From the NCBI GenBank assembly GCA_050173015.1, contig JBFXLE010000021.1, positions 19,978-75,725 on the forward strand: DNA of 55,748 bases. Direction: 5' to 3'. Below are positions 39,666 through 54,715 of this stretch, piece by piece (within the stretch, counting starts at the first letter, position 1; every line of letters starts with the position of its first letter). A program made the translations under genes and the position numbers. The notes beneath the pieces were generated by a model, which worked only from the letters and a program-made list of their open reading frames with translations, was not told where the DNA came from and ran no database searches. The DNA comes from Calditrichaceae bacterium (lineage in GTDB: Bacteria > Calditrichota > Calditrichia > Calditrichales > JBFXGD01).

Positions 39666-39681
39666 TGGCATCTTCTTTGCT
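39666..39681 (+). promoter_or_regulatory. Sigma54 (-24/-12) promoter
   Basis: TGGCAT-CTTCT-TTGCT has GG-N10-GC spacing. It lies about 45 bp upstream of ATG 39726 and directly downstream of a sigma54 activator gene. Confidence 0.8.
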
Positions 39682-39725: not shown

Positions 39726-40136
39726 ATGGACAGAAATTATATTCTTGTAGTAGATGATGAATTAAACACTCTTAATTCTCTGGAATTCATTTTGGAAGCA
39801 GCGGGTTATGAAGTCGCACTCGCGACAAATTGTCAGGAAGCACTATTGATATTGATAGCTGCGAGCGACACGAATCATCCGGTGGAACTGCTGATATTGG
39901 ACGTTGAAATGCCGGGATTAACAAGTATCGAATTTGTAAAAGAGCTGACGCGGCTCAATATTTCAATCCCGATATTTTTAATTTCGGGTTATGGACATAA
40001 TGAACAAATAAGCGAATTGCTAAAACTGGGATGTATCGCCTACTTCCAAAAGCCATTTGATGAAAAGGCCCTTTTATTACTAATAGACGATTTTTTTAGA
40101 AAACAAAGAAACGAAAAAATTCCAATACATAGATAA
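39726..40136 (+). CDS. Single-domain response regulator (CheY-like receiver)
   Basis: ILVVDDE; LILDVEMPG; ISG; QKPF; no output domain. Confidence 0.9.
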   Translation: MDRNYILVVDDELNTLNSLEFILEAAGYEVALATNCQEALLILIAASDTNHPVELLILDVEMPGLTSIEFVKELTRLNISIPIFLISGYGHNEQISELLKLGCIAYFQKPFDEKALLLLIDDFFRKQRNEKIPIHR

Positions 40137-40215: not shown

Positions 40216-41454
40216 ATGATTCAAATTAGTCGATCCCGTTCATTTATGCTGATGCTTTTTCTGGCATCCTCGGTATTTTTTACGAGTTGTCAGTCGACAG
40301 CGCAGAATATTAAATTGAGCGGAAACTGGAATCCGGATGTTAAAGCGCGTCTGGAAGCAAAAATAGCAGCCAATGCTAATCAGGGAAAAATTTGTGTTTT
40401 TGATTTTGACAACACAACAGTCAGCAGAGACATAGGTGAATCCACAATGGCAGCGATGATCGAAGCCGGTGTCCTGACCAAGGAAAAGTATAATAAGGGA
40501 GTTACTCCGGAATACTTCGTTCTTGATGGAAAAAAGGTAACCATGGAAGGATCAGGAAGTCTCGCGGATTATTATGAAGATTTTCTTTCAGCGACCAAAC
40601 ATCACGAATTAGAATCAACTCCCTACGAGAATGGCTATGGATGGGTTGTCCAAATCATGGCGCCGATGTCACCAGCGGACTGGATTCCCTATACTGAAAA
40701 GGCGTACAGCAACGGTATTGGCGCGCAGGATATGAATGCCGTTGATCTTAAGGAAACAAAAATTAACGGATATCGTCAACCATTTTTCTATCCTGAAATG
40801 GTTGATCTTTATGGTGTGCTTCTGAAAAACGGATACAAAGTTTATGTTTCGTCAGCCAGCAATGTTCATACCGTAAGATGGATGGTCAAAAAATATCTCA
40901 ATCCCGCCATTCAGGAATTACACGGCAAAGATCTCAGCGTACCGCCGGAAAATGTCATCGGTGTCAGTTGTCTTATGGTTGACGACCGCACAGGTGAATT
41001 GTGCAAAGATCCTTATCTGGTCAGAGAAAACAAAAAATACGCTGATATGGATATGGAAGAACTTTCACACTATCATTTAACAACACAGATTTGCCATCCG
41101 ATGAACGGATATTTTGGAAAATATGCGAATATCATGAAATATATCTCTCTGGAAAGACCATTTCTTATCGGTGGTGACAGCTCCAATGACCTTCCAATGA
41201 TGAATATGGCTGAGAACAGAATTTGGGTTACACGTCTTGAAAAAATGGGATATCAGGAAACTCTGGTAAAACAAATTGAAAACGCGCTTCCTGGCGAATG
41301 GTTTATTCAGCCGGCTCTTTATAAGAAAAGCCCCGGATTTGTTTCTTCACAAGCGGATCTGGATAAGAAATTTGAAGCAAAACCTGAAGCAAAAGCGACA
41401 CCGGATGAAGTTATAAAATTTCTGCAGAGCAAAGGACAGCTGGTTAATTTCTAA
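40216..41454 (+). CDS. HAD-superfamily phosphatase lipoprotein, phosphorylcholine/phosphoethanolamine phosphatase (PchP)-like
   Basis: Lipobox FTSC; motif I VFDFDNT preceded by IAANANQG; motif II VSSAS; PENVIGV; motif IV GGDSSND. Pattern resembles Pseudomonas PchP as I recall it. Confidence 0.72.
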   Translation: MIQISRSRSFMLMLFLASSVFFTSCQSTAQNIKLSGNWNPDVKARLEAKIAANANQGKICVFDFDNTTVSRDIGESTMAAMIEAGVLTKEKYNKGVTPEYFVLDGKKVTMEGSGSLADYYEDFLSATKHHELESTPYENGYGWVVQIMAPMSPADWIPYTEKAYSNGIGAQDMNAVDLKETKINGYRQPFFYPEMVDLYGVLLKNGYKVYVSSASNVHTVRWMVKKYLNPAIQELHGKDLSVPPENVIGVSCLMVDDRTGELCKDPYLVRENKKYADMDMEELSHYHLTTQICHPMNGYFGKYANIMKYISLERPFLIGGDSSNDLPMMNMAENRIWVTRLEKMGYQETLVKQIENALPGEWFIQPALYKKSPGFVSSQADLDKKFEAKPEAKATPDEVIKFLQSKGQLVNF

Positions 41455-41522: not shown

Positions 41523-42602
41523 ATGATGTTAAGAAGATTTTCAACCATGAGTATGGTGTTGTTGTTTGTTCTCATGAGTACGAACCTTTTTGCCGGTAAA
41601 ATTAATGATGATTTTAGCCTTTCCACAACAATGCGCTACCGCTATTGGGTTAATGACGGAATGATGAACGGAACGGGAAATGAATTCAAATTTGATCGTG
41701 CTTATATTACCATGAAATACAAATTGGCAGATGATATAAAAGCGCGTTTTACGGTAGATTTTACTCACAAAAACAGATATGATACCGGTTATTATCCGGA
41801 TGGAACATCTTACAAAAAATTGATCAACGAAGGAACCCGTTCGAGAATTAAGTATGCATATCTTGAATTCAAAAACTTTCTCGGAGTTGATAATGTCGAT
41901 ATGATCTTCGGTAACTATGAACAACCGGGACCACAGAGTTATCACGGCACGATTGAAAACAGCTGGCTTGACCGGTACACTTATGATAATGCCGTTGCTT
42001 TCCCGGAAGGTTTCAGTTCAGCGGTGACAGGTCTTATGGCCACCTATAACCTGCCGAACAAATTGGGCTACACACGTTTAGCTCTCTCAAACAAAAATAC
42101 CTATAACTATGCCGGCGACGACAACAAAGCCAAAAATATCGGTTTTGATCTCTGGCTGCACCCGGTCGAAGGCTTCACGGTATTTGGTTGGGGAATTATG
42201 GATTATATGTATTCAGGTAATAATGAAGAACATAACGATGCTTTTGGCGGCGGTATTGAATACGCTGTTGCCGATAAGTTTGACGCCGGTGTTGAAGTTG
42301 ATTTTGGACGTTCTACAATTAAGAACGCCGCGGGCGATACGCCATCCGGTATTTCATATATGGGCTATGTAAACTATGATTTAAACCCGAATTTAATGCT
42401 GCTTGCTCAGGCCGGTATTCATGATGCTGATTCAGATGTTGATGATGATGAAATCACAATGATTCTTGGTGGTGTCAATTACAAAATCGTCGGCAGTTGC
42501 ATGTTGATGTTCAACGCGAAAGCAGAAAATTACAAACCTGCACCAGGCGCGGATTCTGAAATGGATATGACTTATATTACACAGTTACTGATCGAATTCT
42601 AA
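41523..42602 (+). CDS. Outer-membrane porin (OprO/P-like beta-barrel)
   Basis: RBS GAGGAG; signal peptide ending LFA; FKFDRAYIT, RFTVD and IKYAYLEF motifs; alternating beta strands; C-terminal F. Confidence 0.75.
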   Translation: MMLRRFSTMSMVLLFVLMSTNLFAGKINDDFSLSTTMRYRYWVNDGMMNGTGNEFKFDRAYITMKYKLADDIKARFTVDFTHKNRYDTGYYPDGTSYKKLINEGTRSRIKYAYLEFKNFLGVDNVDMIFGNYEQPGPQSYHGTIENSWLDRYTYDNAVAFPEGFSSAVTGLMATYNLPNKLGYTRLALSNKNTYNYAGDDNKAKNIGFDLWLHPVEGFTVFGWGIMDYMYSGNNEEHNDAFGGGIEYAVADKFDAGVEVDFGRSTIKNAAGDTPSGISYMGYVNYDLNPNLMLLAQAGIHDADSDVDDDEITMILGGVNYKIVGSCMLMFNAKAENYKPAPGADSEMDMTYITQLLIEF

Positions 42603-42741: not shown

Positions 42742-44181
42742 ATGACGGATAAGATTAAAACAATTACCAGCGTAGGAATCGATATAGGGACAACTACGAC
42801 ACAGGTCATTTTTTCATCGTTGCAATTAATGAATCGCGCGCCGGTGACGCAGGTTCCAAGGTATGAATTTATTGATCGGACTATTATTTTTGAGAGTCCT
42901 GTCTATTTCACGCCGCTTTCAGATGACGATACGATCGATGAGATCAATCTTCTGGAGATCATTAAAAAGGAATACGCCAGTGCCGGATTCTCTCTCTCTG
43001 AAATTGAAACCGGCGCGATAATAATAACGGGAGAAACGTCAAAAGCGGCCAATGCAAGAGCGGCTTTGATCAATCTTACTGAAAGTCTTGGTGATTTTGT
43101 TGTGGCGACAGCAGGACCTCATCTCGAATCTATTATCGCCGGAAGGGGCGCCGGGAGTGATGTGTTTTCGGAGAAAAATTTAACCAGGGTACTCAATATA
43201 GATATCGGTGGCGGAACTTCGAATTATGTGGTCTTTAATAATGGTCGTGTCGAAGATACCGCTTGTCTCAATGTGGGGGGAAGACTGATTGAACTTAACA
43301 ATGATGGCGGGATAAAAAAAATACATCAGCCGGCACTTACTCTTATCAGAGAACTCATTCCGCAATTTAAAGAAAATTACAGCGTTTTATCCCGGGCGGA
43401 TATTCAGCTTATTGTGGATAAAATGGCTGATTTGATCATGGAGTGCGCCCAGGGAAGCCCGTCTCCTTTGGGAAAAAAACTATTAATGACAGAACCTTTG
43501 AAAAATAATGATGAATTTAAATATATATCTTTTTCGGGTGGGGTGGGAGATTGTATGTATCACCCGGAAAACTGGGAGGATCATTCCGGAAAGTACGGAG
43601 ATATTGGTCCGATGCTGGCAAAATCGTTGCTTGCACATCCCTATTTGCAAAAGCTAAATATCCTACAGCCAAAACAGACAATAAGGGCGACAGTAATCGG
43701 AGCGGGCGCGCACACTCTTTCTTTAAGCGGGAGCACAATCTGGCTGCAGTCGGATCGACTGCCAATGCGCAATCTGCCCGTGGTTTTTCCGGTTATCAAT
43801 TGGAAAGAAGATGCTCCTGAACTGAGCGAGGCTATCCTTTCAGGGCTCAAACGCCAGGATTTGGATCCCGCGGTTGATGAGTATATCATTTATCTTTCTG
43901 ATGAAATGCCCGTTAAGTATAAATTTATCGCCCAGTCGGCAAAAGAGCTGGGAGTATTCTTTAAAACGCATACTAATGCGGAGATTCCTGCCTTGATTAT
44001 GTGTAATAGTGATATTGGAAAAGTAATGGGCATGGAACTGGCTCCATTGATTTTACCCAAAAAACTGGCTGTAATCGATGAAGTGAATCTGAAAGAGGGA
44101 GATTATGTAGATATCGGAAAAAGTTATTTCGGCGGGGAAATCGTTCCATTAACGATAAAATCGCTGGCTTTTCCGGCTTAA
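42742..44181 (+). CDS. eutA: Ethanolamine ammonia-lyase reactivating factor
   Basis: SVGIDIGTTTTQVIFS; GAIIITGE; GDFVVATAGPHLES; NIDIGGGTSN; TIRATVIGAG; VPLTIKSLAF. Confidence 0.96.
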   Translation: MTDKIKTITSVGIDIGTTTTQVIFSSLQLMNRAPVTQVPRYEFIDRTIIFESPVYFTPLSDDDTIDEINLLEIIKKEYASAGFSLSEIETGAIIITGETSKAANARAALINLTESLGDFVVATAGPHLESIIAGRGAGSDVFSEKNLTRVLNIDIGGGTSNYVVFNNGRVEDTACLNVGGRLIELNNDGGIKKIHQPALTLIRELIPQFKENYSVLSRADIQLIVDKMADLIMECAQGSPSPLGKKLLMTEPLKNNDEFKYISFSGGVGDCMYHPENWEDHSGKYGDIGPMLAKSLLAHPYLQKLNILQPKQTIRATVIGAGAHTLSLSGSTIWLQSDRLPMRNLPVVFPVINWKEDAPELSEAILSGLKRQDLDPAVDEYIIYLSDEMPVKYKFIAQSAKELGVFFKTHTNAEIPALIMCNSDIGKVMGMELAPLILPKKLAVIDEVNLKEGDYVDIGKSYFGGEIVPLTIKSLAFPA

Positions 44182-44199: not shown

Positions 44200-45561
44200 A
44201 TGAAATTATCAGCACAAGTCTTCGGCACTACTTACCAATTCAGAGACGTGAAGGACGTTCTCGCTAAGGCGAATGAACATCGTTCCGGAGATGTGTTGGC
44301 TGGAGTTGCTGCAGCCAGCTCTCAGGAAAGGGTGGCTGCGAAATATGTTCTAAGCAATTTGACCCTGGCTGACCTGAGAAACAATCCGGTTGTGTCTTAT
44401 GAGAAAGACGCGGTGACAAGAATTATTCAGGATGCCGTAAATGAACGTATTTATGAGTCAATCAAAAACTGGTCGGTTTCAGAGCTTCGTGAATATATAT
44501 TGAGCAATGAAACGACACTCGAAGATATTCAGCGTTTGCGAAAAGGGCTGACTTCGGAAATCGTCGCGGCGGTCGCTAAAATAATGACGAATCTCGATTT
44601 GATGATCGGAGCCAAAAAAATGCCGGTCATCGCGAAAGCCAACTCTACGATCGGGCTGCCGGGTACATTCGGATGCCGGCTTCAGCCAAACGACACCCGG
44701 GATGATGTAAAAAGTATTGCCGCGCAAATCTATGAAGGTCTTTCTTACGGCGCGGGCGATATTTTAATCGGAATTAATCCGGTGATCGATACACCTGAAA
44801 ATATTCATAAGTTATTGGATCTCACTAATGATATCATGGAAAAATGGTCCATTCCCACTCAGAATTGTATTCTGGGTCACGTGAGTAACCAGGTCGAAGC
44901 GATCAAAAAAGGCGCGCCCGCCGGGTGTATATTCCAAAGTCTGGCCGGTTCTGAAAAAGGTTTGAAGGAATTTGGTGTTACTGTCCAGATGCTGGAAGAA
45001 GCCTATGCGGTGGGAAAAGAATATTGCCGTATCGCCGGATCGAATATGATGTATTTTGAAACAGGTCAGGGATCAGAACTTTCAGCGAATGCGCATTATA
45101 ATTCAGATCAGGTAACAATGGAAGCCCGCTGTTACGGACTGGCTAAACATTTTGACCCGTTTCTGGTAAATACCGTAGTAGGATTTATCGGGCCGGAGTA
45201 TTTGTACGACAGTCGTCAGATTACAAGAGCCGGTTTGGAAGATCATTTTATGGGAAAACTAACCGGAGTATCAATGGGCGCGGACGCCTGCTACACCAAT
45301 CATGCCAATGCCGATCAAAACAGCATGGATAATCTGATGGTGGTTCTGGCGAGCGCGGGTATCAATTATGTAATGGGTGTTGCCGCGGCAGATGACATCA
45401 TGCTGAATTATCAGTCTACGAGTTTTCATGATACTGCCTCGGTGAGACAGCTTATGGGTTACAAACCGAGTCCGGAATTTGAAAAATGGTTAGAGAAAAT
45501 GGGCATTTGGGAGAATGGAAATCTGACTCCTAAGGCCGGTGATCCCTCAATTTTCTTTTAA
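44200..45561 (+). CDS. eutB: Ethanolamine ammonia-lyase large subunit
   Basis: VLAKANE.RSGD.LAG; RLQPNDTRDD; MYFETGQGS; NTVVGFIGPEYLY; CYTNHA; DIMLNYQ. Confidence 0.98.
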   Translation: MKLSAQVFGTTYQFRDVKDVLAKANEHRSGDVLAGVAAASSQERVAAKYVLSNLTLADLRNNPVVSYEKDAVTRIIQDAVNERIYESIKNWSVSELREYILSNETTLEDIQRLRKGLTSEIVAAVAKIMTNLDLMIGAKKMPVIAKANSTIGLPGTFGCRLQPNDTRDDVKSIAAQIYEGLSYGAGDILIGINPVIDTPENIHKLLDLTNDIMEKWSIPTQNCILGHVSNQVEAIKKGAPAGCIFQSLAGSEKGLKEFGVTVQMLEEAYAVGKEYCRIAGSNMMYFETGQGSELSANAHYNSDQVTMEARCYGLAKHFDPFLVNTVVGFIGPEYLYDSRQITRAGLEDHFMGKLTGVSMGADACYTNHANADQNSMDNLMVVLASAGINYVMGVAAADDIMLNYQSTSFHDTASVRQLMGYKPSPEFEKWLEKMGIWENGNLTPKAGDPSIFF

Positions 45562-45576
45562 AATATAGGTGGAGCA

Positions 45577-46473
45577 ATGGATAATAAAAAAATTCAGGAT
45601 ATTGTAGATGTTGTTCTTGCAGAGTTGAAGGTTCAGGAGAATAAACCGGCAACAAAGGAATCAACATCACCAGAAAAAACAGTGGTAGATCCGGTTGGTT
45701 CCGTTTCCGATGGAGTCCTTCCTGAGCTTGGCAGCGATGAATTCAAAAATTGGATCGGTGTGCAAAATCCGCATAATGAAAAAGCGCTAAAAGATTTACG
45801 CGCATCGTCTGTCGCCAGAGTATGTGTCGGTCGCGCCGGGGCGAGATTAAGAACAAATACGCTGCTCCGTTTCCTGGCGGATCATTCGCGGTCGAGAGAT
45901 ACGGTATTTAAAGAAGTCCCGCAGGAATGGATTGAAAAAAGCGGGATGTTTATGGTTCAAACTCAGGTGAAAGATAAAGATGAATATCTTACCAGACCGG
46001 ATAAAGGGCGTCGTCTTCAGGAAGAGGCAACAAAAACCATTCTTGAAAAATGCCAGAAAAATGTCCAGGTGCAGGTTGTTCTTTCGGACGGATTGAGCAC
46101 GGACGCCTTAACAGCCAATTTTGATGAAATTCTGCCGCCGTTACTGAATGGATTGAAAACAGCCGGATTAAACGCCGGGATACCTTTCTTTGTAAAGTAT
46201 GGCAGAGTTAAGATGGAAGACGAAGTTGGCGAATTACTCGGCGCCGATGTGGTTGTCCTCCTCGTTGGTGAAAGACCCGGACTTGGACAGTCAGAGAGTT
46301 TGAGTGCTTACATTGTTTATAAGCCGACTGTAGAAGGTACAGTGGAATCTGATCGTACCTGTATTTCAAATATTCACAACGGGGGTACACCGCCGGTCGA
46401 AGCGAGCGCCGTGATTGTAGATACAGTCAAACGCATGATAGAACAAAAAACCAGCGGTATCAATTTACGATAA
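45577..46473 (+). CDS. eutC: Ethanolamine ammonia-lyase small subunit
   Basis: N-terminal encapsulation peptide [59 protein letters not shown]. Confidence 0.97.
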
Positions 46474-46498: not shown

Positions 46499-47158
46499 AT
46501 GGCTATTTTAGATGAAATCAGAGCAAATGTGCTCGCAGTTCGTTTAATCGCGTCTGTTGATAGAGGATTTGCGGAAAAATTATCATTAAAACCGGATCAA
46601 AGATCTCTGGGGCTGCTGACCTGTGATATAGATGACGCCTGTTATGTCGCGATTGATGAGGCGACCAAAAAAGCGGAAGTGGAGGTCGTTTATGCCAAAT
46701 CTTTTTATGCCGGCGCGGCTCACGCGAGCGGACCGCTTTCCGGTGAAATTATCGCTATGCTGGCGGGACCGACGCCCGGAGAAGTTAGGGCCGGACTGGA
46801 TGCCGCGATCGATTACATCAAAACGGATGCCATCTGGTATTCGGCAAACGAAGCGAATTCGCTGGCTTTTTTCCCGCATCTGATTGCGCGCACGGGAACT
46901 TATCTGTCCAAGGTGGCCGGAATAGATGAAGGTTCCCCTTTGGCATATTTAATCGCGCCGCCCCTTGAAGGCACATACGCGATAGATGCGGCTTTAAAGG
47001 CAGCGAACGTGGAAGTGAAAGAATGGTTCGCCCCGCCGTCAGAGACAAATTTTACCGGTGCGCTGATGACGGGTACCCAGGCGGCATGCCAGGCGGCATG
47101 TGACGCTTTTCGTGATGCAGTGTTGTCAGTAGTGCGGAATCCTATACAGATTGGATAA
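46499..47158 (+). CDS. eutL: BMC-T shell protein
   Basis: DEATKKA.VEVVYAKSFYAGA; TGTYLS; LAYLIAPPLE; PPSETNF. Confidence 0.96.
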   Translation: MAILDEIRANVLAVRLIASVDRGFAEKLSLKPDQRSLGLLTCDIDDACYVAIDEATKKAEVEVVYAKSFYAGAAHASGPLSGEIIAMLAGPTPGEVRAGLDAAIDYIKTDAIWYSANEANSLAFFPHLIARTGTYLSKVAGIDEGSPLAYLIAPPLEGTYAIDAALKAANVEVKEWFAPPSETNFTGALMTGTQAACQAACDAFRDAVLSVVRNPIQIG

Positions 47159-47160
47159 GA

Positions 47161-47721
47161 ATGCTTAGCTCATATGGATTTATCGAGACAAGGGGATTGA
47201 CAGCAGCGATTGAAGCCGCTGACGCCATGGTTAAGGCCGCAAAAGTACATATAATCAAGGTTAAAAAAAGCGGTGGCGCATTGGTCACAATCATTGTCGA
47301 GGGAGATTTGGCCGCATGTCAGGCGGCGGTAGATGCCGGTAAAAGCGCCGCTCTGTGTATCGGCAAAGTTGTTTCGCATCATGTGATTGCGCGTCCCTTA
47401 GATGACACCGAATATTTGGTTAGGCAACTGTTAACAGGGAACTTGATGGGACGGGGACAACAGGGAATTACCAGTAGGAACAAGACCCGGAATCCAAAAA
47501 AAGTGAAGCGAGCCAATAAGATACCGGCAGCAGGAATGAAGCCCGACGATTCTCAAAAAATATTGGCTTTACTTAAGTCGGATCAAACAGGTCTGACTCT
47601 GCAGGAGATATCAGACAAGCTTGGAGTAACTTTAACGGAAGTCCGTAAGGTCATCAAAAAATTAGTTGATACAAAAATGATTGAGAAAGTTCATCAGAAA
47701 TACTACCTGATGGAAAACTAA
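47161..47721 (+). CDS. eutK: BMC-H shell protein with basic linker and C-terminal winged-HTH (EutK-like)
   Basis: GFIETRGL.AAIEAADAMVKAA...HVIARP BMC domain; K/R-rich linker; ILALLK...GLTLQEISDKLGV...VRKVIKKL HTH; positioned after eutL. Confidence 0.78.
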   Translation: MLSSYGFIETRGLTAAIEAADAMVKAAKVHIIKVKKSGGALVTIIVEGDLAACQAAVDAGKSAALCIGKVVSHHVIARPLDDTEYLVRQLLTGNLMGRGQQGITSRNKTRNPKKVKRANKIPAAGMKPDDSQKILALLKSDQTGLTLQEISDKLGVTLTEVRKVIKKLVDTKMIEKVHQKYYLMEN

Positions 47722-47722
47722 T

Positions 47723-48499
47723 ATGAAGCTGATCATCATTATCAATAATAAAGGCGGGGTGGGTAAAACCACCAGCGCGGTGAATATCGCCTCCCGGTTT
47801 GGTCAAATGGGTAAAAAAACCCTGCTGGCTGATATTGATCCTTCTTCGAGCGCGTCAAGTCACCTTGGTCTTATTAAACAAGACTCAGAATTTAATACGA
47901 TCTGTGATTATCTGATAAACAAGGAAGATAACATAAAAGATTATATTCAAAAAACGGAATTTAAAAATTTATGGTGTCTACCTTCAGAACCGGCTTTAAG
48001 TGATTTTTATGATGAATTACAGCAGGATGAAAAAATATCGTTCTTCATAAAAAAAGAAGATATCCCTGCTGAATTTGAATATGTAATTTTTGATTGTCCG
48101 CCCAATATGGGTTCTTTGTCACTCAACGCGCTTGCGGTTTCAGACTATGCTCTTATCCCGGTGCAAGCTCAATATATAGCGCTTTCGGGGTTGGAACTCA
48201 CATTGAGTTTGCTTGAAAAAGTTAGACGGAGAGTTAATCCTGAAATTAAGATTCTTGGTCTGTTTGGAACACATTTTGACAAGAGAACAAAAGTTTCGGT
48301 CCAGGTGATGGAACAACTCAGGAGCCGATTCGGTGAGCAGGTTTTTAATTCGGTCATCGGGATCAACAGTAAACTGAGTGAGGCATACAATCAAAAAATG
48401 CCTGTTTCCTATCTTGACAAACGCGCGAGCGGAAGCAGGGACTATGAATTACTGTCGAAAGAAATCATTAAACGCGTGAGGGAAGATGAAAGACATTAA
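47723..48499 (+). CDS. ParA/Soj-family ATPase
   Basis: Deviant Walker [18 protein letters not shown]; Walker [34 protein letters not shown]. Confidence 0.93.
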
Positions 48500-48842
48500 C
48501 GATTTATCCGGGAAAGAACGTATCATTCAGGAATACGTCCCGGGAAAGCAGGTCACTCTTGCTCACATGATTGCTCATCCGGGTGAAGATCTCTGCAAAA
48601 AAATTGGAGTACCTTATGTAAACGCGATCGGAATAATGACGCTCACACCGGGTGAGACAGCGATTATCGCCGGAGATATAGCTCTTAAAGCGGCCAGCGT
48701 GGACATTGGTTTTCTGGACCGGTTTACCGGCGCCCTGGTCTTCTACGGAGAAGTGGGAGCGGTTGAAGAAGCTCTGATCTCTGTAAATCAAGTACTGAAC
48801 AACATTTTGGGATATACCCCATGCGAGGTTACAAAAACCTGA
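48486..48842 (+). CDS. eutS: Circularly permuted BMC-H shell protein
   Basis: [46 protein letters not shown]. Confidence 0.96.
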
Positions 48843-49300
48843 TGAAGAAGAAACCGGATAATTTTATACTGATAGGAACAACCGGCGTTGGCAAATCAAC
48901 TCTGTTTAATGCTTTGCTAAACCGGGATGAAGAAGTGATCAAAACACAGGCCATGGTCTATCATGATGAACAGACCATCGATACTCCGGGAGAATATCTT
49001 GATAATCCCAGATTATACACAGCTTTGATCTCAACGATGACCACGATCGATACCATTTTATATGTGCATCAAAGTAATGTGGTCGAGCATAAAATGCCTC
49101 CGGGCCTGTTTACAATTTATAATAACCGGGTCATTGGTGTCATTTCAAAAATTGATCTGCCTGACGCCCGGGTGGAAGAAGTCCGGGAATTGCTGAAGGA
49201 GTATGGTATCATAGAAAATATATTTGAAGTTTCAGTTCTGGATGGCAGAACGATAGCTAAACTTAGAAAATACCTCATAGAGAGAAATCATATAAACTAG
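48842..49300 (+). CDS. eutP: EutP/PduV-family P-loop NTPase
   Basis: G.TGVGKSTL; KTQA; IDTPGEY; SKID. ATG at 48842 overlaps the eutS stop. Confidence 0.92.
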   Translation: MKKKPDNFILIGTTGVGKSTLFNALLNRDEEVIKTQAMVYHDEQTIDTPGEYLDNPRLYTALISTMTTIDTILYVHQSNVVEHKMPPGLFTIYNNRVIGVISKIDLPDARVEEVRELLKEYGIIENIFEVSVLDGRTIAKLRKYLIERNHIN

Positions 49301-49313
49301 AGTGGGTTTAGAG

Positions 49314-50039
49314 ATGAAAAAATTGATCACCGCGTCAAAAATCAGACAGGTAAAAACAGAGGGGATTAAGGAAATCCTGGCGTCAAAAGACGATTCTATT
49401 ATAACCCCTGAAGCGAAAGATCTTGCAAAAAAGCTCGGAATAAGGATTTTAGAAAAAGAGAATAACTCAAAGCCGGCTGTTAAGAAATCCGCTAATCTTT
49501 CCGCTACGGCGAATATTGATGAAAATCTTGTAAGACAGGTGACGGTTGAAGTGATTAAAAAGTTGCCGGCAGATCGAAGAGATCCCGAGAAAATTAAAGA
49601 AATTGTGCTGGCGGTACTCCAAAACAAAAAATCTGATACGTCTCCTGAAATTCAGCAAGTCAGCGAGCGAAAAGTTGATTCTTCCGGCATTATTTTGATC
49701 AGGGGACAGTCTGTCAAGCTTGAACGATTCGAAGACGCTGGACCAGAGAAAAATATCAGATTAGCTGATGTGGTTACCCATGAAGACGGTTCTCCCATCG
49801 CCGCGGGTATTATGGAATGGAAAAAAGAATCTTTCCCATGGACGCTTACTTACGATGAAGTTGATATCGTTCTTGAAGGTACTCTTTCAATAACGATTGA
49901 TGGCAGGACCTTTGAAGGACATGCGGGGGACATGTTCTACATCCCAAAGGGAAGCAGCATAATCTTCGGAACGCCGACGAGAACGAAGGTATTTTATTCC
50001 ACATATCCGGCAAATTGGGCACAATTGGCAAAAGGTTGA
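49314..50039 (+). CDS. eutQ: Cupin-domain ethanolamine utilisation protein
   Basis: MKKLITA; IITP.AKD; FPWTLTYDEVDIVLEG; GD..YIPKGSSI.FGTP; YPANW. ATG at 49314; the ORF track gives GTG 49302. Confidence 0.93.
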   Translation: MKKLITASKIRQVKTEGIKEILASKDDSIITPEAKDLAKKLGIRILEKENNSKPAVKKSANLSATANIDENLVRQVTVEVIKKLPADRRDPEKIKEIVLAVLQNKKSDTSPEIQQVSERKVDSSGIILIRGQSVKLERFEDAGPEKNIRLADVVTHEDGSPIAAGIMEWKKESFPWTLTYDEVDIVLEGTLSITIDGRTFEGHAGDMFYIPKGSSIIFGTPTRTKVFYSTYPANWAQLAKG

Positions 50040-50044
50040 TAATT

Positions 50045-50866
50045 ATGAGTCAAAAATTTATTACAGAGCTGTGGCTGCGTGATAATTTCAGCCTGGGGCA
50101 CGGAACGGAACTCAATCTTCCCAGAGAATCAAAACTTACACCATCCGCGCATCAGTTACTGCAGGAGAGAAGAATAAAAGTGAAGTTTGTTGATGATGAG
50201 GGGCGGGTTTATCTTCCGGCAAAAGATGACAGTAATGTGTCTTCGGAGCAGCCTGTACATCCATTGACCGGTGGGACAAAACGTCCGGACAACGAATGTT
50301 CGTTGTGCGGCCAGCATATTGAAAATAAACCCGATACGATGACGCACCTGGATAAGGACACGCTTGTTCCAAAAAATAACTCTCGTCTGAAGCTAAGGGG
50401 TAAACTGGATACTATTATTGCCTACACGGTTCTGTTGCAGAATGAATTTGATCCTGATGATAAATACCCGGTGCTGAACAGATATCTCGCGGACATCCGT
50501 TCATATCTGGGCAATATTCTGAAAGCAGAAGTCACAGGGGAAGAATTGTCCCCGGTTTCTATCGGAGATATGGATGAAGAAGTTATTCATGCGATTTCAC
50601 ATAATCCTTTAAAATATCTCGGGCATGACCATATCGTCCCATGCAAAGATCATGGCGTTCGGGTGGCGCGTCTTAATTATCTGCGCGCGCTGGTACGGGA
50701 AGCAGAAGTCATCGCCGCTGATTTATTTATTGATGAATTATTCCGTGTTTCAAGAAAGGATTTAATGAAGGGTTTAAACAGGTCAAGCAGCGCGATCTAT
50801 GTATTAATGATGATGACACTAATGGCTGAAAAGGGCAAAGTTGCCGAGAAACCGGAGGCGCGTTAA
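50045..50866 (+). CDS. eutT: EutT-type ATP:cob(I)alamin adenosyltransferase
   Basis: FITE.WLR; LTPSA; H-X12-CxxC; KPDTMTHL...LVPK; RGKLD; SHNPLKY; LN.LRA..RE.E; LNR.SS. ATG at 50045. Confidence 0.93.
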   Translation: MSQKFITELWLRDNFSLGHGTELNLPRESKLTPSAHQLLQERRIKVKFVDDEGRVYLPAKDDSNVSSEQPVHPLTGGTKRPDNECSLCGQHIENKPDTMTHLDKDTLVPKNNSRLKLRGKLDTIIAYTVLLQNEFDPDDKYPVLNRYLADIRSYLGNILKAEVTGEELSPVSIGDMDEEVIHAISHNPLKYLGHDHIVPCKDHGVRVARLNYLRALVREAEVIAADLFIDELFRVSRKDLMKGLNRSSSAIYVLMMMTLMAEKGKVAEKPEAR

Positions 50867-50868
50867 CA

Positions 50869-51843
50869 ATGGCCATTCTTGATAATTTTGCGGCAAGATG
50901 CCGTCAAAAACCAAAAACCATAATCTTTCCGGACGCATCGGATATCCGGGTCATTGAAGCGGCAAGAAGACTGATTGATGAAAAATTGGCTGATCCGGTA
51001 CTCGTTGGAAGTCCGTTTGGCATCAGAGAAGAAGCGGACAAGGCAGGATTGTCAACCCGGGGAATGAAAATAATAGCGCCTCATCAGGATGAAAAATATA
51101 AGGAATATGCAGAAAAATATTATGATCTGAGAAAAGAAAAGGGAGTGACCGGATATGACGCGGAAGAAGTCATGAGAAATCCACTCTATTTTTCAGCAAT
51201 GTATGTACGTGATGGCCGTTCTGATATATGCGTCGGAGGCAATCAGTCAACAACGGCTGATGTTCTTCGGGCCGCGATTCAGATTATCGGTGTGGCAGAA
51301 GGCATCAAAACAGTGTCCAGTTTTTTTCTGACGATTCACCCTGACGGGCAGCAGGTTTTCGCATTCGCGGACTGCGCGGTTATACCGGAACCTACATCGG
51401 AACAGCTCGCGGAGATCGCGGTCACCACAGCTGAGAATTATTTAAATCTGACCGGGATTTCCCCAAAAACAGCGATGCTGTCTTTCTCAACCAAGGGGAG
51501 CGCGACACATCCTGCAATTGAAGAAGTTCAGGTCTCGGTGGAGATGGCGAAAAGATTGAAACCGGATTTGATCATCGACGGTGAAATGCAATTTGACGCC
51601 GCCTTGATTCCGGCGGTTGCAAAAATGAAAGCGCCGGGGAGTCCACTGGAAGATGGAGCGAATGTTTTTATTTTTCCGTCACTGGAAGCCGGAAATATCG
51701 GTTACAAAATTGCTCAGAGGCTCGGCGGATTTAAAGCGTTGGGGCCTATGATTCAGGGATTAAAAAATCAGATGCACGATTTATCAAGAGGGTGTAGTGT
51801 TCAGGATATTATGGATGTCTCTTTAACAGCATCCTGTATGTAG
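50869..51843 (+). CDS. eutD: Phosphate acetyltransferase
   Basis: FPDA.D.RV; TADVLRAAIQIIG; FADCAVIPEP; MLSFSTKGS; DGEMQFDAA; GNIGYK; DLSRGCS. Confidence 0.92.
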   Translation: MAILDNFAARCRQKPKTIIFPDASDIRVIEAARRLIDEKLADPVLVGSPFGIREEADKAGLSTRGMKIIAPHQDEKYKEYAEKYYDLRKEKGVTGYDAEEVMRNPLYFSAMYVRDGRSDICVGGNQSTTADVLRAAIQIIGVAEGIKTVSSFFLTIHPDGQQVFAFADCAVIPEPTSEQLAEIAVTTAENYLNLTGISPKTAMLSFSTKGSATHPAIEEVQVSVEMAKRLKPDLIIDGEMQFDAALIPAVAKMKAPGSPLEDGANVFIFPSLEAGNIGYKIAQRLGGFKALGPMIQGLKNQMHDLSRGCSVQDIMDVSLTASCM

Positions 51844-51880
51844 GAATATCAATTTTTAAGTAGTGATCAGGAGAATTTTT

Positions 51881-52168
51881 ATGGAAGCATTAGGCATGAT
51901 AGAAACCAGGGGATTGGTTGGTTTGATCGAAGCATCGGATGCCATGGTCAAAGCCGCCAGGGTTAAATTAGTCGGTTACCAGCAGATTGGCGGCGGACTG
52001 GTCACCGCTCTGGTCCGTGGAGATGTTGCCGCGTGTAAAGCCGCAACAGATGCCGGGGCTGCCGCGGCGGAAAGAGTCGGTGAACTTGTCGCGGTACATG
52101 TTATTCCCCGTCCTCACGGTGATCTCGAAGATATTTTTCCGATTAAGATGAACGGTGAAATCATATAA
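51881..52168 (+). CDS. eutM: BMC-H shell protein (copy 1)
   Basis: [35 protein letters not shown]...[13 protein letters not shown]...[10 protein letters not shown]. Confidence 0.94.
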
Positions 52169-52209
52169 ATTGAAATATCAGAAACACATTTATTTTTAAG
52201 GAGAACAAA

Positions 52210-52497
52210 ATGGAAGCATTGGGTATGGTTGAGACAAAAGGCCTGGTTGGATTAATCGAGGCTTCTGACGCGATGGTAAAGGCAGCGAGAGTAAAGCTGG
52301 TCGCTTATCAACAGATTGGCGCGGGATATGTAACGGCATTAGTCCGCGGAGATGTGGCGGCATGTAAGGCAGCGACCGATGCCGGCGCCGCTGCGGCAGA
52401 ACGTGTGGGTGAATTGGTCGCGGTACATGTCATTCCCCGTCCTCATGGTGATCTTGAAGACATTTTCCCGATTAAACTGAGCGGTGAAATTAAATAA
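52210..52497 (+). CDS. eutM: BMC-H shell protein (copy 2)
   Basis: Protein nearly identical to copy 1; AAGGAG RBS. Confidence 0.94.
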
Positions 52498-52548
52498 ATA
52501 TTAACAAAACTATTTCCTGAATATCAGGATCGTTTGTAAGGAGAAACA

Positions 52549-52839
52549 ATGGAAGCATTAGGATTAATTGAGACAAAGGGGCTTGTAGGATTGATCGAAG
52601 CCTCGGATGCGATGGTAAAGGCCGCAAGAGTGGAATTAGTGGCATATCAGCAGATAGGCGCCGGATATGTGACCGCCATGGTTCGCGGCGATGTCGCGGC
52701 GTGTAAAGCGGCAACAGACGCCGGCGCGGCGGCCGCGGAACGTGTAGGTGAATTGGTTTCAGTACATGTGATACCGCGTCCCGCAGGTGATTTGGAAGAT
52801 GTTTTTCCGATTAAGCTGAAAAAGAAATCCGGTAAATAA
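52549..52839 (+). CDS. eutM: BMC-H shell protein (copy 3)
   Basis: Protein nearly identical to copies 1 and 2; AAGGAG RBS; basic tail KLKKKSGK. Confidence 0.94.
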
Positions 52840-52990: not shown

Positions 52991-53290
52991 ATGGAATTAG
53001 CAAAAGTTATCGGAAACGTAGTTTCCACGGTTAAGATAGAAAGTTTGACAATAGGTAAATTGCTGTTAGTGCAGTTTGTAGGCGAAAATGGCGAGGCCGT
53101 CGGGCCTCCTTCAGTCGCGCTTGACACTATCGGAGCCGGGGAAAACGAGTATGTGATTCTTGTTCGCGGAAGTTCCGCGAGGGTCGCTCTTGACAACCGT
53201 TCATCTGTAGATCTGACTGTTGTCGGAATAGTAGATACGGTTGTTTCTGCCGGTAAGTATATCTATGACAAAAAATCAGACAAGCAATAG
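52991..53290 (+). CDS. eutN: BMC-P vertex pentamer (EutN/CcmL)
   Basis: M.LAKVIGNVVST.K; VALD.IGAG..E.V....GSSAR; D..VVGIVD. Confidence 0.95.
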   Translation: MELAKVIGNVVSTVKIESLTIGKLLLVQFVGENGEAVGPPSVALDTIGAGENEYVILVRGSSARVALDNRSSVDLTVVGIVDTVVSAGKYIYDKKSDKQ

Positions 53291-53305: not shown

Positions 53306-54715
53306 ATGGAATACTCTTCGCAGGATGTCGCCCGTATTGTTGAGACGGTGATTCAGAAACTGGATAGTAAAAATAACATGACCGGAAGCGGTCACCTGCC
53401 CGCGGGAATATTTGAAACATTGGATGATGCGGTATCGGGCGCAGCAAAAGCGCAAAAAAAGATTCGTAATCTTGAATTACGTTCAAAAATTATCCAGGCC
53501 ATTCGTGTTGCCGGAAAAGCGCATGCTAAGGAGTTAGCAGAACTTGCGGTTCAGGAAACAGGAATGGGACGTGTGGATGATAAGATACAGAAGAATCTAT
53601 CTCAGGCTGAAAAAACACCAGGCGTTGAGGACATCAGCCCTCAGGCGTTGTCTGGTGATCACGGCCTGACTCTGACCGAAAATGCTGCCTGGGGTGTTAT
53701 CGCTTCAGTCACGCCTTCGACAAATCCCGCAGCGTCAATAATCAACAACTCGATCAGTATGATATCCGCGGGAAACTCGATTGTTTTTGCGCCGCATCCC
53801 TCAGCAAAAAAAGTCAGTCAGAGAGCGATTACTATATTGAACGAAGCCGTTGTAAATGCCGGCGGGCCGGCCGATTTAATGACCTGTGTCGCTGAACCAA
53901 CGATTGAAGTTGCCCAGCAGTTATTCAAATATCCGGGAATCGGATTGCTTGTGGTCACCGGCGGTGAAGCAGTAGTAGAGGCGGCAAGAAAATCAACAGA
54001 TAAGCGGCTTATCGCTGCAGGCGCCGGAAATCCGCCGGTGGTGGTTGATGAAACAGCAGATATTCCCAACGCCGCGAAATGCATCGTTTACGGGGCGTCA
54101 TTTGATAACAATATTATATGCGCTGATGAAAAGGAAATTATTGCGGTCCATTCGATTACAGATCAGCTAAAAGAAGAAATGGTGAAAAATAAGGCTTACG
54201 AATTGTCGCAAAGCCAGGCTGAAGATGTAGCGCGCGCGATTCTTATAGATTATCCCGGGCCAAATCCAAAGATTAACAGAAAATGTGTCGGCAAAGACGC
54301 GGCGGTAATCGCGAAGGCCGCCGGTATTGATGTTCCGGAAGACACCCGCCTGCTGTTTGCGGAAACGGATAAAAATCATCCCTTCGCGCGGATCGAATTA
54401 ATGATGCCGGTGATCTCGGTAATAAGGGCTCAGAATGCCGATCAGGCAATCGATTATGCTGTAGAACTTGAGCGTGGATTACATCACACGGCAGCCATGC
54501 ATTCAAAAAATATTGATAATCTGCACAGAATGGCCAATGAAATCGATACGAGCATTTTTGTGAAAAACGGGCCATGTCTCGCGGGTCTCGGTTTTGGCGG
54601 AGAAGGTTGGACAAGCATGACAATATCGACGCCCACAGGTGAAGGCGTCACCAGCGCGAAATCATTTGTACGTTTACGCCGCTGTGTTATCGTCGATCAT
54701 TTCAGAATTGTATAA
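53306..54715 (+). CDS. eutE: CoA-acylating acetaldehyde dehydrogenase
   Basis: Encapsulation peptide QDVARIVETVIQKL; ETGMGRV.DK; PSTNP; VTGG; GAGNPPVVVDETAD; SFDNNIICADEK; TPTGEGVTSA. Confidence 0.95.
   Translation: MEYSSQDVARIVETVIQKLDSKNNMTGSGHLPAGIFETLDDAVSGAAKAQKKIRNLELRSKIIQAIRVAGKAHAKELAELAVQETGMGRVDDKIQKNLSQAEKTPGVEDISPQALSGDHGLTLTENAAWGVIASVTPSTNPAASIINNSISMISAGNSIVFAPHPSAKKVSQRAITILNEAVVNAGGPADLMTCVAEPTIEVAQQLFKYPGIGLLVVTGGEAVVEAARKSTDKRLIAAGAGNPPVVVDETADIPNAAKCIVYGASFDNNIICADEKEIIAVHSITDQLKEEMVKNKAYELSQSQAEDVARAILIDYPGPNPKINRKCVGKDAAVIAKAAGIDVPEDTRLLFAETDKNHPFARIELMMPVISVIRAQNADQAIDYAVELERGLHHTAAMHSKNIDNLHRMANEIDTSIFVKNGPCLAGLGFGGEGWTSMTISTPTGEGVTSAKSFVRLRRCVIVDHFRIV

Follow-up and report, generated by a model that had tools for sequence, protein, structure and literature searches.

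The eut locus analyzed here raises the question of why a ParA-family ATPase should be encoded among the genes of a catabolic microcompartment, and of which protein might serve as its partner. In the window, by which we mean the whole 55,748-nt stretch of Calditrichaceae DNA under analysis, parA lies directly behind a gene for a shell protein that ends in a winged helix, and the preliminary description of the locus proposed that these two genes make up a positioning system devoid of McdB, in which the shell protein would itself act as activator or nucleoid tether of the ATPase. To our knowledge, the McdAB system of carboxysomes is the one positioning system whose workings have been established to date, and we know of no explanation for the role of the EutK helix-turn-helix tail offered since its structure was reported. 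The answer put forward in this work, to which we assign a probability of roughly 0.6, is that the EutK-type protein and the adjoining ParA constitute an McdB-less organelle-positioning module with a shell-integrated adaptor.

The layout of the locus (Table 1) is as first described. The TAA stop of the EutK-type gene (47719-47721) is followed by a single base and then by the parA ATG at 47723, and the parA stop codon (48497-48499) falls 14 nt inside eutS. The eutL/eutK/parA/eutS arrangement is not an assembly artefact. Its junctions are bridged by contigs of other public runs; a 5498-nt contig of run X4 covers 46499-47925 (eutL/eutK/parA), and the parA/eutS/eutP junctions are also bridged in X4, at 48009-49151. 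Neither parB nor any unassigned plus-strand ORF of at least 50 aa appears in the ORF list between 42742 and the end of the window, in keeping with the earlier statement that parA is flanked by neither parB nor a small McdB-like ORF. A scan for sigma-54 promoters returned 35 matches against 36.8 expected, so that the count carries no meaning. An oligo-dT RNA library (X14) contains two 151-nt contigs from this region (47446-47596 and 47607-47757), which show no transcription, since DNA can be present in oligo-dT libraries. Run X2 yielded no contigs that could be placed on the window.

Table 1. Features of the eut locus, in positions of the window
Feature	Position	Strand	Basis
eutA	42742-44181	+	ORF list
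eutB	44200-45561	+	ORF list
eutC	45577-46473	+	ORF list
eutL (BMC-T), upstream neighbor of the EutK-type gene	46499-47158	+	NCBIfam EutL equivalog, 353.7 bits vs cut-off 198
EutK-type shell protein, 186 aa	47161-47721	+	BMC-H + basic linker + winged helix
BMC-H domain, residues 4-79	47170-47397	+	PF00936, 91.2 bits, E 4e-26
Lys/Arg/Pro-rich disordered linker, residues 96-128	47446-47544	+	AlphaFold2 pLDDT <50
EutK_C-type winged helix, residues 130-183	47548-47709	+	Three helices + beta hairpin, pLDDT ~90
ParA-family ATPase, 258 aa	47723-48499	+	Pfam AAA_31, E 4.5e-45
Deviant Walker A KGGVGKTT, residues 10-17, signature lysine K10	47750-47773	+	Translation
ParA R188	48284-48286	+	phmmer alignment to T. 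thermophilus Soj
ParA K217	48371-48373	+	phmmer alignment to T. thermophilus Soj
eutS, downstream neighbor of parA	48486-48842	+	NCBIfam EutS, 178.2 bits vs cut-off 123
eutP (EutP/PduV GTPase)	48821-49300	+	ORF list, Pfam
eutQ	49302-50039	+	Pfam EutQ at residues 96-240

Judging by its architecture, the 186-aa product of the upstream gene is a true EutK-type shell protein. The BMC-H domain, basic linker and winged helix noted at first reading are all recovered: beyond the Pfam BMC match, winged-helix families match residues ~125-184 (Pfam; HTH_11, E 1e-06), the AlphaFold2 model has a mean pLDDT of 80.4, and the best Foldseek matches of the BMC-H domain are EutM/PduA (TM by target 0.87-0.9), with K25, the edge lysine position of BMC-H, invariant in 26/26 relatives. 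As a 26-member family these proteins align with E. coli EutK over 163 columns (hhalign probability 99.85%, E 7.7e-31), and the tail alone aligns with the E. coli EutK tail over 55 columns (95.6%, E 1.2e-8). It is on hhalign that the homology of the tail to EutK_C rests. PF16365 matches 16/26 tails at E<=0.01 (best 4.6e-6), the tail of the present protein scores 17.6 bits, under the 27.5-bit cut-off, and HTH_IclR, an ordinary DNA-binding winged-helix family, matches 19/26 tails. The NCBIfam EutK equivalog NF012010 gives 107 bits against a cut-off of 218, which makes this protein a distant member of the EutK architecture, not an equivalog of enterobacterial EutK. The closest ESM Atlas clusters are EutK (scores 0.85-0.89; a lead only), and Foldseek with the whole model returned only BMC-H shell proteins, hence being uninformative on the tail.

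The Lys/Arg-rich stretch of the preliminary description corresponds to residues 105-120 of the linker. Over residues 93-127 the net charge is +10 in this protein and +4 to +21 in 25/26 relatives, with one at 0, and the linker varies in length without conservation of sequence among the 26. Among the 32 tail matches (single-stretch, 165-292 aa) of a profile search against 1.84 billion representatives, an N-terminal BMC domain is present in 27; by this count, the winged-helix tail appears nearly confined to BMC-H proteins. A word-based search with the tail returned just three near-identical proteins, and a cluster look-up of ten tail-bearing representatives gave one organism name, Caldithrix abyssi.

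The product of parA scores above the Pfam cut-offs for AAA_31/PF13614 (154.2 bits, residues 1-177) and CbiA/ParA PF01656 (75 bits, E 6.8e-21, residues 4-228). Its PDB matches include ParA 8ray (E 1.1e-49), T. thermophilus Soj (E 2.6e-39) and McdA 6noo (E 5.8e-11), the Soj/ParA matches ranging from E 1e-49 to 6e-31, and AlphaFold2 predicts alternating strands and helices (pLDDT 86.9, pTM 0.89). The signature-lysine Walker A singled out before lies within a segment, N8-S18, that is invariant in 26/26 relatives. The same holds for the basic residues that had been proposed to be kept at Soj DNA-binding positions: R188 of DKRT and K217 of NSKLSEA, aligned by phmmer with the arginines of DGRT and NVRLAEA in T. 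thermophilus Soj, are invariant in 26/26 relatives, and the residue is identical to R188 in 91% of 23 other ParAs. We take these positions to be the DNA-binding positions of Soj, and DNA binding by the present ParA is predicted only.

The concern that this ATPase might group with chromosomal Soj is met by its phylogeny. In a tree built without McdA reference sequences, 28 BMC-linked ParAs form one clade (SH-aLRT 99, stem length 1.0), apart from the Soj of the genome analyzed here. The chromosomal Soj+ParB pair of this genome is encoded separately (C17:83997-85617), and its Soj is 38% identical to the ParA of the EutK pair and falls in a different clade. As far as sequence comparison goes, the ParA of the pair is Soj-like, of a separate BMC-linked clade and distinct from chromosomal Soj. 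Within this clade the branch of the eut-locus ParA has a length of 0.45 and joins, with weak support (91), the copy of one other genome instead of the other copy of its own genome; the base of the EutK tree is unresolved, and the eut copy may stem either from an old duplication or from a transfer within the order.

A main result of the comparative analysis concerns the joint occurrence of both genes in 86 genomes of the phylum, where the ParA clade was called at E<=1e-60 and the EutK-type tail at E<=1e-6. Both are found in the identical set of 35 genomes, all of one order, and they adjoin on the same strand at 37/37 places (coordinate comparison), neither occurring alone in any of the 86. The EutK-ParA adjacency is beyond chance, and conservation across BMC loci, suggested beforehand as a check, is borne out. 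Of 24 loci measured, 10 have a spacer of -4 nt between the stop codon of EutK and the start of ParA, and 21 have one of <=15 nt. BMC genes are present in 61/86 genomes. Among the 39 genomes of the order, 35 have BMC genes and the pair, two have BMC genes without the pair (G024, G037), two have neither (G011, G015) and none has the pair without BMC genes; in those four genomes the best ParA-profile matches reach just 154-208 bits. Since the 35 genomes are kin, with perhaps one or two origins behind the association, namely this order and the metagenome contig L040, these counts overstate independent support, and 24 BMC-bearing genomes of sister orders carry neither gene, which counts against a general need for the pair.

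The usual setting of the pair is the head of a MIC-type BMC locus, in the order EutK-ParA-EutQN-pta-eutM. Such a locus headed by the pair is present in 34 other genomes. Two copies occur only in both genomes of the present genus (G000, G038), in which the second copy, between eutL and eutS, is specific to this genus. Hence, the original view of the pair as an eut module stands insofar as the pair does reside in an eut operon, but its usual home is the MIC-type locus and the eut copy is a genus-specific second one. Outside the order, a metagenome contig (L040, GC 58%) has the pair standing ahead of eutM genes, and its ParA carries the source label Bacteroidetes MAG; this contig represents a second lineage with the EutK-ParA pair. 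A metagenome scan with the ParA alignment found BMC genes nearby in 2/80 among the matches listed (L040, L041), the remaining listed loci being generic ParAs because one search pattern was the Walker A motif, and a genome-collection scan with the single protein yielded nothing beyond a nearly identical MAG contig and the Soj of a Lachnospiraceae origin region (L002), both of them uninformative.

The ParA dimer with ATP was modelled together with EutK residues 88-186, using our own unpaired alignments. The complex score, which is the model's own confidence, was 0.65 (runs 0.65, 0.65, 0.63) as opposed to 0.02 for the best of three controls, a prediction that favors the proposed partnership. The same mark is reached by 58/80 solved complexes and 2/110 mismatched pairs, counts that hold only roughly, since our own alignments were used and ATP was included. 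The runs share >=40% of contacts, with a partner pLDDT of >=63. In the model, the winged helix is predicted to dock across the partner-binding surface of the ParA dimer through its recognition helix and wing (residues 147-148, 158, 162-163, 166, 169-170, 175-178, 180 and 182). On one ParA subunit it contacts helix 60-65 and helix 92-101, and on the other helix 131-139 and the end of helix 155-170; the helices contacted are named as ParA partner surface in portions of a preprint (10.64898/2026.10.19.760177). The tail contacts include four of the five invariant tail residues (R162, K166, D170, E175) together with K176, and the interface residues of the winged helix are conserved above the rest of the domain (0.69 vs 0.46, permutation p 0.003). 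On the other hand, conservation at the ParA interface does not exceed that of the remaining protein (0.73 vs 0.71, p 0.37), and only 3/16 clade-specific positions fall among its 19 residues (hypergeometric p 0.10), both of which count against the contact. The model has no confident ParA contact on the basic linker, and the proposed activating peptide is therefore unsupported; this linker is internal, not N-terminal as is usual for ATPase-stimulating peptides. Thus, of the suggested linker and helix-turn-helix contacts, the winged helix is docked in the model but the linker is left without a confident one.

Adjacency, clade and complex model together lend in silico support to EutK as the ParA partner of a two-gene module. 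With the pair always adjacent and the model docking the tail on the ATPase, the shell itself probably carries the spacing adaptor. In the mechanism that we propose, the EutK-type protein would tile into the microcompartment shell via its BMC-H domain, from which its attachment is inferred, and would display the flexible basic linker and winged helix on the shell exterior. The dedicated ParA, as an ATP dimer, would bind nucleoid DNA non-specifically in the manner of Soj, and the shell-borne winged helices would dock across the dimer where ParB, MinE and similar partners act, with the linker or the winged helix presumably stimulating the ATPase. The many tails of a compartment would deplete ParA locally and the compartment would follow the ParA gradient, a diffusion ratchet as in McdAB/carboxysomes that would keep compartments separate and away from the poles and ensure their inheritance at division, so that the pair would position them. 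That the EutK-type winged helix is specifically a ParA-docking, not a DNA-binding, domain, and the shell protein itself the adaptor of the ParA motor, is a more tentative proposition, to which we give somewhat less than even odds.

DNA binding by the tail may involve the very face that is docked on ParA in the model, and it is conceivable, if rather unlikely, that the winged helix and linker bind DNA, a role also put forward for EutK of E. coli and Salmonella, and tether the compartment to the nucleoid directly, with ParA acting alongside through another shell surface or an unseen partner. Such a tether would agree with the matches of the tail to DNA-binding winged-helix families, with the positive charge of nearly all linkers, with the absence of a confident linker contact from the complex model and with the effect of EutK on compartment distribution in Salmonella, where no ParA adjoins it (passages of PMC12487888). 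Nonetheless, the predicted ParA contact takes up the recognition helix and wing, invariant residues included. E. coli EutK, without a ParA neighbor, retains G144 and R162, while K166, D170 and E175 of the tails are replaced there by E, S and R (hhalign alignment), so that three of the invariant contact residues differ there, and tail and ParA are never apart in the 86 genomes. A role of ParA in compartment assembly or quality control, in which it would prevent the aggregation of sheets and nascent compartments or time shell closure, seems distinctly improbable. McdAB is described as an anti-aggregation system in parts of PMC8359340, and the pair heads an operon of shell and enzyme genes, but the Soj-type R188 and K217 are invariant and Pfam reveals no membrane-targeting or other extra domain in the 258-aa protein.

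The partner of ParA might also be sought in the protein of ~100 aa encoded after parA in 23/28 MIC-type loci (of the other five, three end at parA and two have no match), which would then fill the McdB/ParB role. Its gene is often only -4 to 26 nt from parA, it has conserved N-terminal Lys residues, and ParA partners are usually encoded downstream (MacCready review PMC8262871). However, the 24-member family of this ORF matches residues 5-108 of the eutQ product of the present locus (hhalign 99.5%, E 5e-23) and E. coli EutQ 1-99 (98.4%, E 9.1e-15), the N-terminal ~105 residues of the eutQ product being its counterpart. By homology, the small ORF of the relatives encodes the N-terminal shell-cargo linker of EutQ as a protein of its own; the Salmonella EutQ N-terminal region is described as a shell-cargo linker in passages of PMC12487888, which locates it inside the shell. 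The family is moreover folded and helical, unlike a disordered protein that ends in an aromatic residue, for which reasons it was rejected as McdB; it is missing after parA in L040, and eutS and eutP intervene between parA and eutQ in the window. A partner role for it is therefore very improbable, and the claim of an McdB-less system holds for the present locus, with no McdB-like ORF, but its relatives do have a small ORF, albeit a EutQ-N one. The N-terminus of the EutT-like protein (50015-50866) was also considered as a EutQ-N relative and dismissed (hhalign E 0.034, probability 1.5%). Finally, parA holds the position of eutR in E. coli and the tail is a winged helix, from which it could be argued that winged helix and ParA replace EutR in transcription control of the BMC operon (cf. 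type Ia partition operons). This we consider extremely improbable, given that the locus comes with regulators of its own, of the two-component, sigma-54 type, immediately upstream (Pfam), that the helix-turn-helix is fused to a shell protein in most profile matches, that ParA has no N-terminal HTH extension in the 26-member alignment and that this genome has the pair at the head of another BMC locus as well.

The module of EutK-type protein and ParA, if borne out, would stand for a class of organelle-positioning systems without a separate partner protein, and ParA docking would be the first function for the EutK tail. Two recent Salmonella eutK studies show mislocalization and offer no mechanism, for which the pair supplies a concrete candidate. 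It may explain the polar pile-up in Salmonella eutK mutants, if the EutK tail there uses the nucleoid or another ParA-like protein. The predicted interface names specific tail residues, and a compact two-gene module could accompany synthetic shells so that these stay dispersed in their host.

Among known systems, EutK of Salmonella and E. coli is homologous to the protein analyzed here and shares its two-domain architecture and its place after eutL, although the E. coli linker is shorter (hhalign alignment). Enterobacterial eutK is followed by eutR, as previously stated and as seen in E. coli K-12, whereas here it is followed by parA. In Salmonella delta-eutK cells, Eut compartments are polar and static according to parts of PMC12487888, where a ParB-like role of EutK in BMC partitioning is already suggested, and bipolar aggregates in the same mutant have been likened to those of mcdA/mcdB mutants (10.64898/2026.10.07.757396). 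Salmonella EutK influences positioning without an adjoining ParA, which counts against the proposed pairing. In the Pdu system, PduK is reported as a minor shell protein whose C-terminal extension prevents polar Pdu aggregation (passages of PMC12487888 and PMC13052382). The window, too, encodes a EutP/PduV GTPase, but the tail of PduK is no winged helix and involves no ParA, and for PduV, a Ras-like GTPase, another mechanism has been proposed. Deletion of ParA or MinD in Salmonella left Pdu compartments in place (PMC12866334), which counts against a ParA requirement. According to portions of three surveys (Axen 2014 PMC4207490; MacCready 2021 PMC8359340; PMC13052382), ParA (PF01656) belongs to the ancillary families of BMC loci, 'mcdAB-like genes' occur in the vicinity of EUT and PDU operons, and Caldithrix abyssi has a MIC locus with AldDH, pta and PduS; these portions of text make no mention of a link between ParA and a winged-helix shell protein or of a EutK-ParA pair.

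With ParABS (Soj/Spo0J) the pair shares the ParA fold and motifs, the basic residues at Soj positions and a partner, here a proposed one, that carries an HTH, and the contact is predicted on that side of the dimer where ParB and MinE act. The cargo of ParABS is DNA, whereas here it would be a protein shell, with no parS and no ParB domain, and in ParABS it is an N-terminal peptide that touches ParA, as opposed to the helix-turn-helix itself in our model. The McdA/McdB systems, both beta (Synechococcus elongatus) and alpha (Halothiobacillus neapolitanus), likewise place a ParA-family ATPase in a microcompartment operon, and the mechanism that we propose matches theirs, with a ParA on the nucleoid and a cargo-bound partner. 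McdB, usually encoded directly behind mcdA, is small and largely disordered; its N-terminus is charged and an aromatic residue stands at its C-terminus. No ORF for such a partner occurs in the present locus. Like the present ParA, the alpha and beta type-2 McdA carry the signature lysine (parts of PMC8359340), yet in sequence the present ParA is far closer to Soj than to the McdA of known structure. The cargo here would be a catabolic metabolosome instead of a carboxysome, and in place of McdB we propose a shell protein bearing a folded winged helix as the adaptor.

The ethanolamine-utilisation (eut) microcompartment operon of the window is complete, as judged from the ORF map and from Pfam and NCBIfam matches. 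The junctions noted in the preliminary description are exact: one nucleotide separates the stop codon of the EutK-type gene from the parA ATG, and parA and eutS share 14 nt. The genes of the compared E. coli K-12 locus run eutS-P-Q-T-D-M-N-E-J-G-H-A-B-C-L-K-R, and the window order (A-B-C-L-K, parA, S-P-Q-T-D-M-N-E) amounts to this order cut and rejoined. The two eut blocks thus stand in another order than in E. coli K-12, and parA is therefore found at their joint, where it holds the place that eutR occupies after eutK in E. coli. The operons differ also in eutM, with one copy in E. coli K-12 and three here. An assembly artefact can be ruled out: near-identical sequence is present in runs of several studies, and contigs from another study's run bridge both eutL-eutK-parA and parA-eutS-eutP.

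Coordinates of the features discussed (window positions unless a contig is named)
Feature	Position	Strand	Remark
NtrC-type sigma-54 activator gene	37892-39322
sigma-54-type promoter-like site	39666-39680	+
response-regulator gene	39726-40136
HAD-like putative lipoprotein	40216-41454
OmpL-like beta-barrel porin	41523-42602
eutA	42742-44181	+
eutB	44200-45561	+
eutC	45577-46473	+
eutL	46499-47158	+
EutK-type BMC protein	47161-47721	+	186 aa
ParA	47723-48499	+	258 aa
eutS	48486-48842	+
eutP	48821-49300	+
eutQ	49302-50039	+
cobalamin adenosyltransferase	50015-50866	+
pta	50869-51843	+
eutM x3	51863-52839	+
eutN	52991-53290	+
aldehyde dehydrogenase	53306-54715	+
RnfC/PduS-like gene	after 54715	+	cut by window end
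PduT-like tandem-BMC gene	C14:461-1102		start of contig C14
second microcompartment locus	C1:82531-90411		first part also in L008:4532-12001
ParA-family gene	C7:109620-111889
locus of EutK-type/ParA pair, metagenome	L040:3466-8468		GC 58%

The RnfC/PduS-like gene is interrupted by the end of contig C21 (window 55748); a possible continuation of the locus is contig C14 of the same genome, which opens with a PduT-like tandem-BMC gene and, next, a gene for a membrane protein. Upstream, the sigma-54-like site has one mismatch to TGGCAC-N5-TTGC, in a window where matches to this motif are at chance level (35 observed against 36.8 expected). It lies 46 nt 5' of the response-regulator gene, itself 5' of the eut genes, and the NtrC-type activator is encoded a short way upstream. 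The putative lipoprotein and the porin, both with weak Pfam matches below cut-offs, are encoded between these regulators and eutA, and may have a part in ethanolamine uptake or release.

By profile comparison, the 186-aa shell protein is a real EutK, a distant member of that architecture. In Pfam, residues 4-79 match the BMC domain and residues from about 125 to 184 match winged-helix families. An AlphaFold2 model built on an alignment of 26 relatives shows a confident BMC-H domain (1-92) and a confident winged helix (130-183) of three helices and two strands, joined by a segment that is disordered (96-128, pLDDT below 50). With hhalign, the family profile covers 163 of the 166 residues of E. 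coli EutK (99.85%, E 7.7e-31) and the tail alone matches the E. coli tail over 55 columns (95.6%, E 1.2e-8). Pfam EutK_C is matched by 16 of the 26 tails at E<=0.01, the window tail reaching 17.6 bits, under the 27.5-bit cut-off, and the whole protein scores 107 bits against the 218-bit cut-off of the NCBIfam EutK equivalog. The tail profile retrieved 328 proteins at E<=0.001 from 1.84 billion representatives; an N-terminal BMC domain was found in 27 of the 32 matches scanned (single-stretch, 165-292 aa), and the winged helix is therefore almost confined to shell proteins.

The adjacent ATPase carries a deviant Walker A motif with the signature lysine and matches AAA_31 and CbiA/ParA in Pfam. 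Among solved structures it is closest to ParA 8ray (E 1.1e-49) and to Soj from T. thermophilus and from H. pylori; a solved McdA is matched at only E 5.8e-11. The basic residues previously noted at Soj positions are borne out, since R188 and K217 align with basic Soj residues, at positions that bind DNA in Soj, and are invariant in relatives. The source genome holds four clear ParA-family genes, and a fifth match (26% identity) lies inside a 766-aa frame on contig C13. Besides the window gene, these are a copy on contig C1 (57% identity to the window ParA), a Soj beside a classic ParB on C17 (38%) and a gene on C7 (33%) that may encode a ParC-type chemotaxis-cluster positioning ATPase. The last has a CheW-like gene two genes away; the four ParA-type proteins of this genome thus appear to serve different cargos. 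A tree of 51 sequences was built by the quick IQ-TREE method from 26 BMC-linked ParAs, two other paralogues of this genome, one Lachnospiraceae Soj and 22 metagenome ParAs hand-picked for full-length match among the 80 matches listed. The BMC-linked ParAs (n=28) form one clade (SH-aLRT 99, stem length 1.0) and the Soj of the same genome falls outside it; the window ATPase is not the chromosomal Soj, and its placement points to a Soj-like ParA in a clade of its own.

The distribution of the pair alters one element of the original description. The pair inside the eut operon is real, but eut is not its usual home, which is a locus of the type found on contig C1. There, a BMC-H-linker-winged-helix protein precedes and overlaps parA by 4 nt, and after parA come a 100-aa ORF for a free-standing EutQ N-terminal protein, pta, two eutM and aldehyde dehydrogenase, EutJ-like, PduS/RnfC-like and PduT-like genes. 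Neither a signature enzyme nor a BMC-P gene was found in this locus, and the EutN-like genes away from it are on contigs C11 and C3. It is a 'metabolosome with incomplete core' (MIC), the kind of locus that PMC4207490 reports in Caldithrix abyssi. Of 86 genomes of the phylum, 35 have the ParA clade (E<=1e-60), all of one order (the source genome and 34 of 38 others); none of the 47 genomes of other families has it. A tail-only profile (E<=1e-6) recovers exactly the same 35 genomes. Adjacency is conserved throughout: when coordinates were compared, the tail was directly 5' of ParA on the same strand in 37 of 37 places, both halves of the EutK-type protein preceded ParA in all 29 retrieved loci (tblastn), and, of the 24 pairs whose spacer could be measured, 10 had one of -4 nt and 21 had one no longer than 15 nt. 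Two pairs, one per locus type, occur only in the source genome and in the other genome of the genus, G038.

BMC genes are found in 61 of the 86 genomes. Within the order, 35 genomes have BMC genes and the pair, two (G024, G037) have BMC genes without it, none has the pair without BMC genes, and two have neither (G015, and G011 at 64% completeness); the top ParA-profile matches of these four reach only 154-208 bits. Of the 47 genomes in other orders, 24 carry BMC genes and lack both halves of the pair, and the module is therefore a lineage trait and not a general microcompartment requirement. Since the genomes are kin, these counts reflect long retention after few origins, not 37 independent events. 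One further lineage is represented by metagenome contig L040, a relative of higher GC that has the EutK-type/ParA pair and in which two eutM directly follow ParA, then aldehyde dehydrogenase, EutJ-like and RnfC-like genes; an EutQ N-terminal ORF and pta are absent after ParA. The L040 ParA has the same sequence as a protein whose source label is Bacteroidetes MAG, and two ParAs 43-50% identical to it (P0284, P0288) carry the source label Ignavibacteria.

An ORF of about 90-120 aa lies 3' of parA in 23 of 28 MIC-type loci (tblastn); of the remainder, three stop at parA and two have no match. This candidate McdB is rejected, as it is homologous to the N-terminal region of EutQ (hhalign, 98.4% and E 9.1e-15 against E. 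coli EutQ residues 1-99; 99.5% and E 5e-23 against the N-terminal part of window EutQ), the segment described as a shell-to-cargo link in Salmonella EutQ (residues 1-99; PMC12487888). Hence the lack of a flanking McdB-like partner, first remarked for the window, is true of the whole family.

A complex of two ParA, two ATP and EutK-type residues 88-186, each protein with a supplied alignment, was modelled, and the prediction supports tail-ParA binding, with a score of 0.65 (runs 0.65, 0.65 and 0.63) against 0.02 for the best of three controls. Of 80 solved complexes, 58 reach this score mark, as do 2 of 110 mismatched pairs; the counts are only rough because supplied alignments were used and a small molecule was included. 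Runs share at least 40% of contacts, and partner pLDDT is at least 63. Modelled tail contacts (147-148, 158, 162-163, 166, 169-170, 175-178, 180, 182) include K176 and four of the five residues invariant in the 26 relatives (R162, K166, D170 and E175, the fifth being G144), and within the winged helix the interface positions are better conserved than the others (0.69 against 0.46, permutation p 0.003). Speaking against the contact, interface positions of ParA are not conserved beyond its other residues (p 0.37) and comprise only 3 of 16 clade-specific positions (p 0.10). The ParA contacts span the modelled dimer, with 52, 61-62, 65-66 and 91-103 on one subunit and 131, 134 and 166-171 on the other. 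In the AlphaFold2 model these elements are helix 60-65 in the strand 2-3 insert, helix 92-101, helix 131-139 after Walker B and the end of helix 155-170; a recent preprint (10.64898/2026.10.19.760177) assigns ParB and MinE action to a surface made of the beta2-beta3 insert of one subunit and core helix 4 of its partner subunit. In E. coli, where EutK lacks an adjacent ParA, the protein keeps G144 and R162, but E, S and R replace K166, D170 and E175; these differences, from one sequence, fit a specialised tail-ParA contact.

The sequence observation of the preliminary description is thus confirmed, and its interpretation, with the above corrections, is supported in silico. We put at roughly 60% the probability that the shell-borne EutK-type tail and ParA form an McdB-less compartment positioning system. 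In such a system, the BMC-H domain would place the EutK-type protein in the shell and the winged-helix tail would be displayed on the exterior; BMC-H termini face the cytosol in solved shells. ParA-ATP dimers would coat the nucleoid, tails would bind across the dimer and, directly or via the basic linker, elicit ATP hydrolysis and release, and the compartment would move towards higher ParA, away from its neighbours. The main rival, which we regard as unlikely, is that tail and linker tether the compartment straight to DNA, with ParA acting through something else. The linker varies in sequence and length (17-71 residues), but its basic character is kept in 25 of 26 relatives (net charge +4 to +21). 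In the model the winged helix is confidently in contact with ParA and the linker has no confident contacts.

The positioning reading would reduce two questions, the long-standing one of the EutK tail and that of metabolosome positioning, to a few well-defined experiments. Parts of it have precedents in the portions of the literature consulted: the occurrence of ParA genes at BMC loci (PMC4207490), genes termed 'McdAB-like' in the neighbourhood of further BMC operons, including EUT (PMC8359340, PMC8262871, PMC13052382), and the involvement of Salmonella EutK in distributing compartments, with a suggested ParB-like action (PMC12487888; 10.64898/2026.10.07.757396). A whole-word search joining EutK, ParA, microcompartment and positioning found PMC12487888 alone, and the main text of a BMC catalogue (PMC8217296) mentions neither EutK nor the protein ParA. 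Figures and supplements aside, the accessible texts described neither a conserved pairing of EutK and ParA genes, nor a shell protein as ParA adaptor, nor contact between ParA and the winged helix of EutK; the Caldithrix ParA may appear in Figure 8f of PMC8359340, Datasets S1/S2 of PMC4207490 or the supplements of PMC8217296. The logic proposed here is that of McdAB, but with a shell subunit in the place of McdB.
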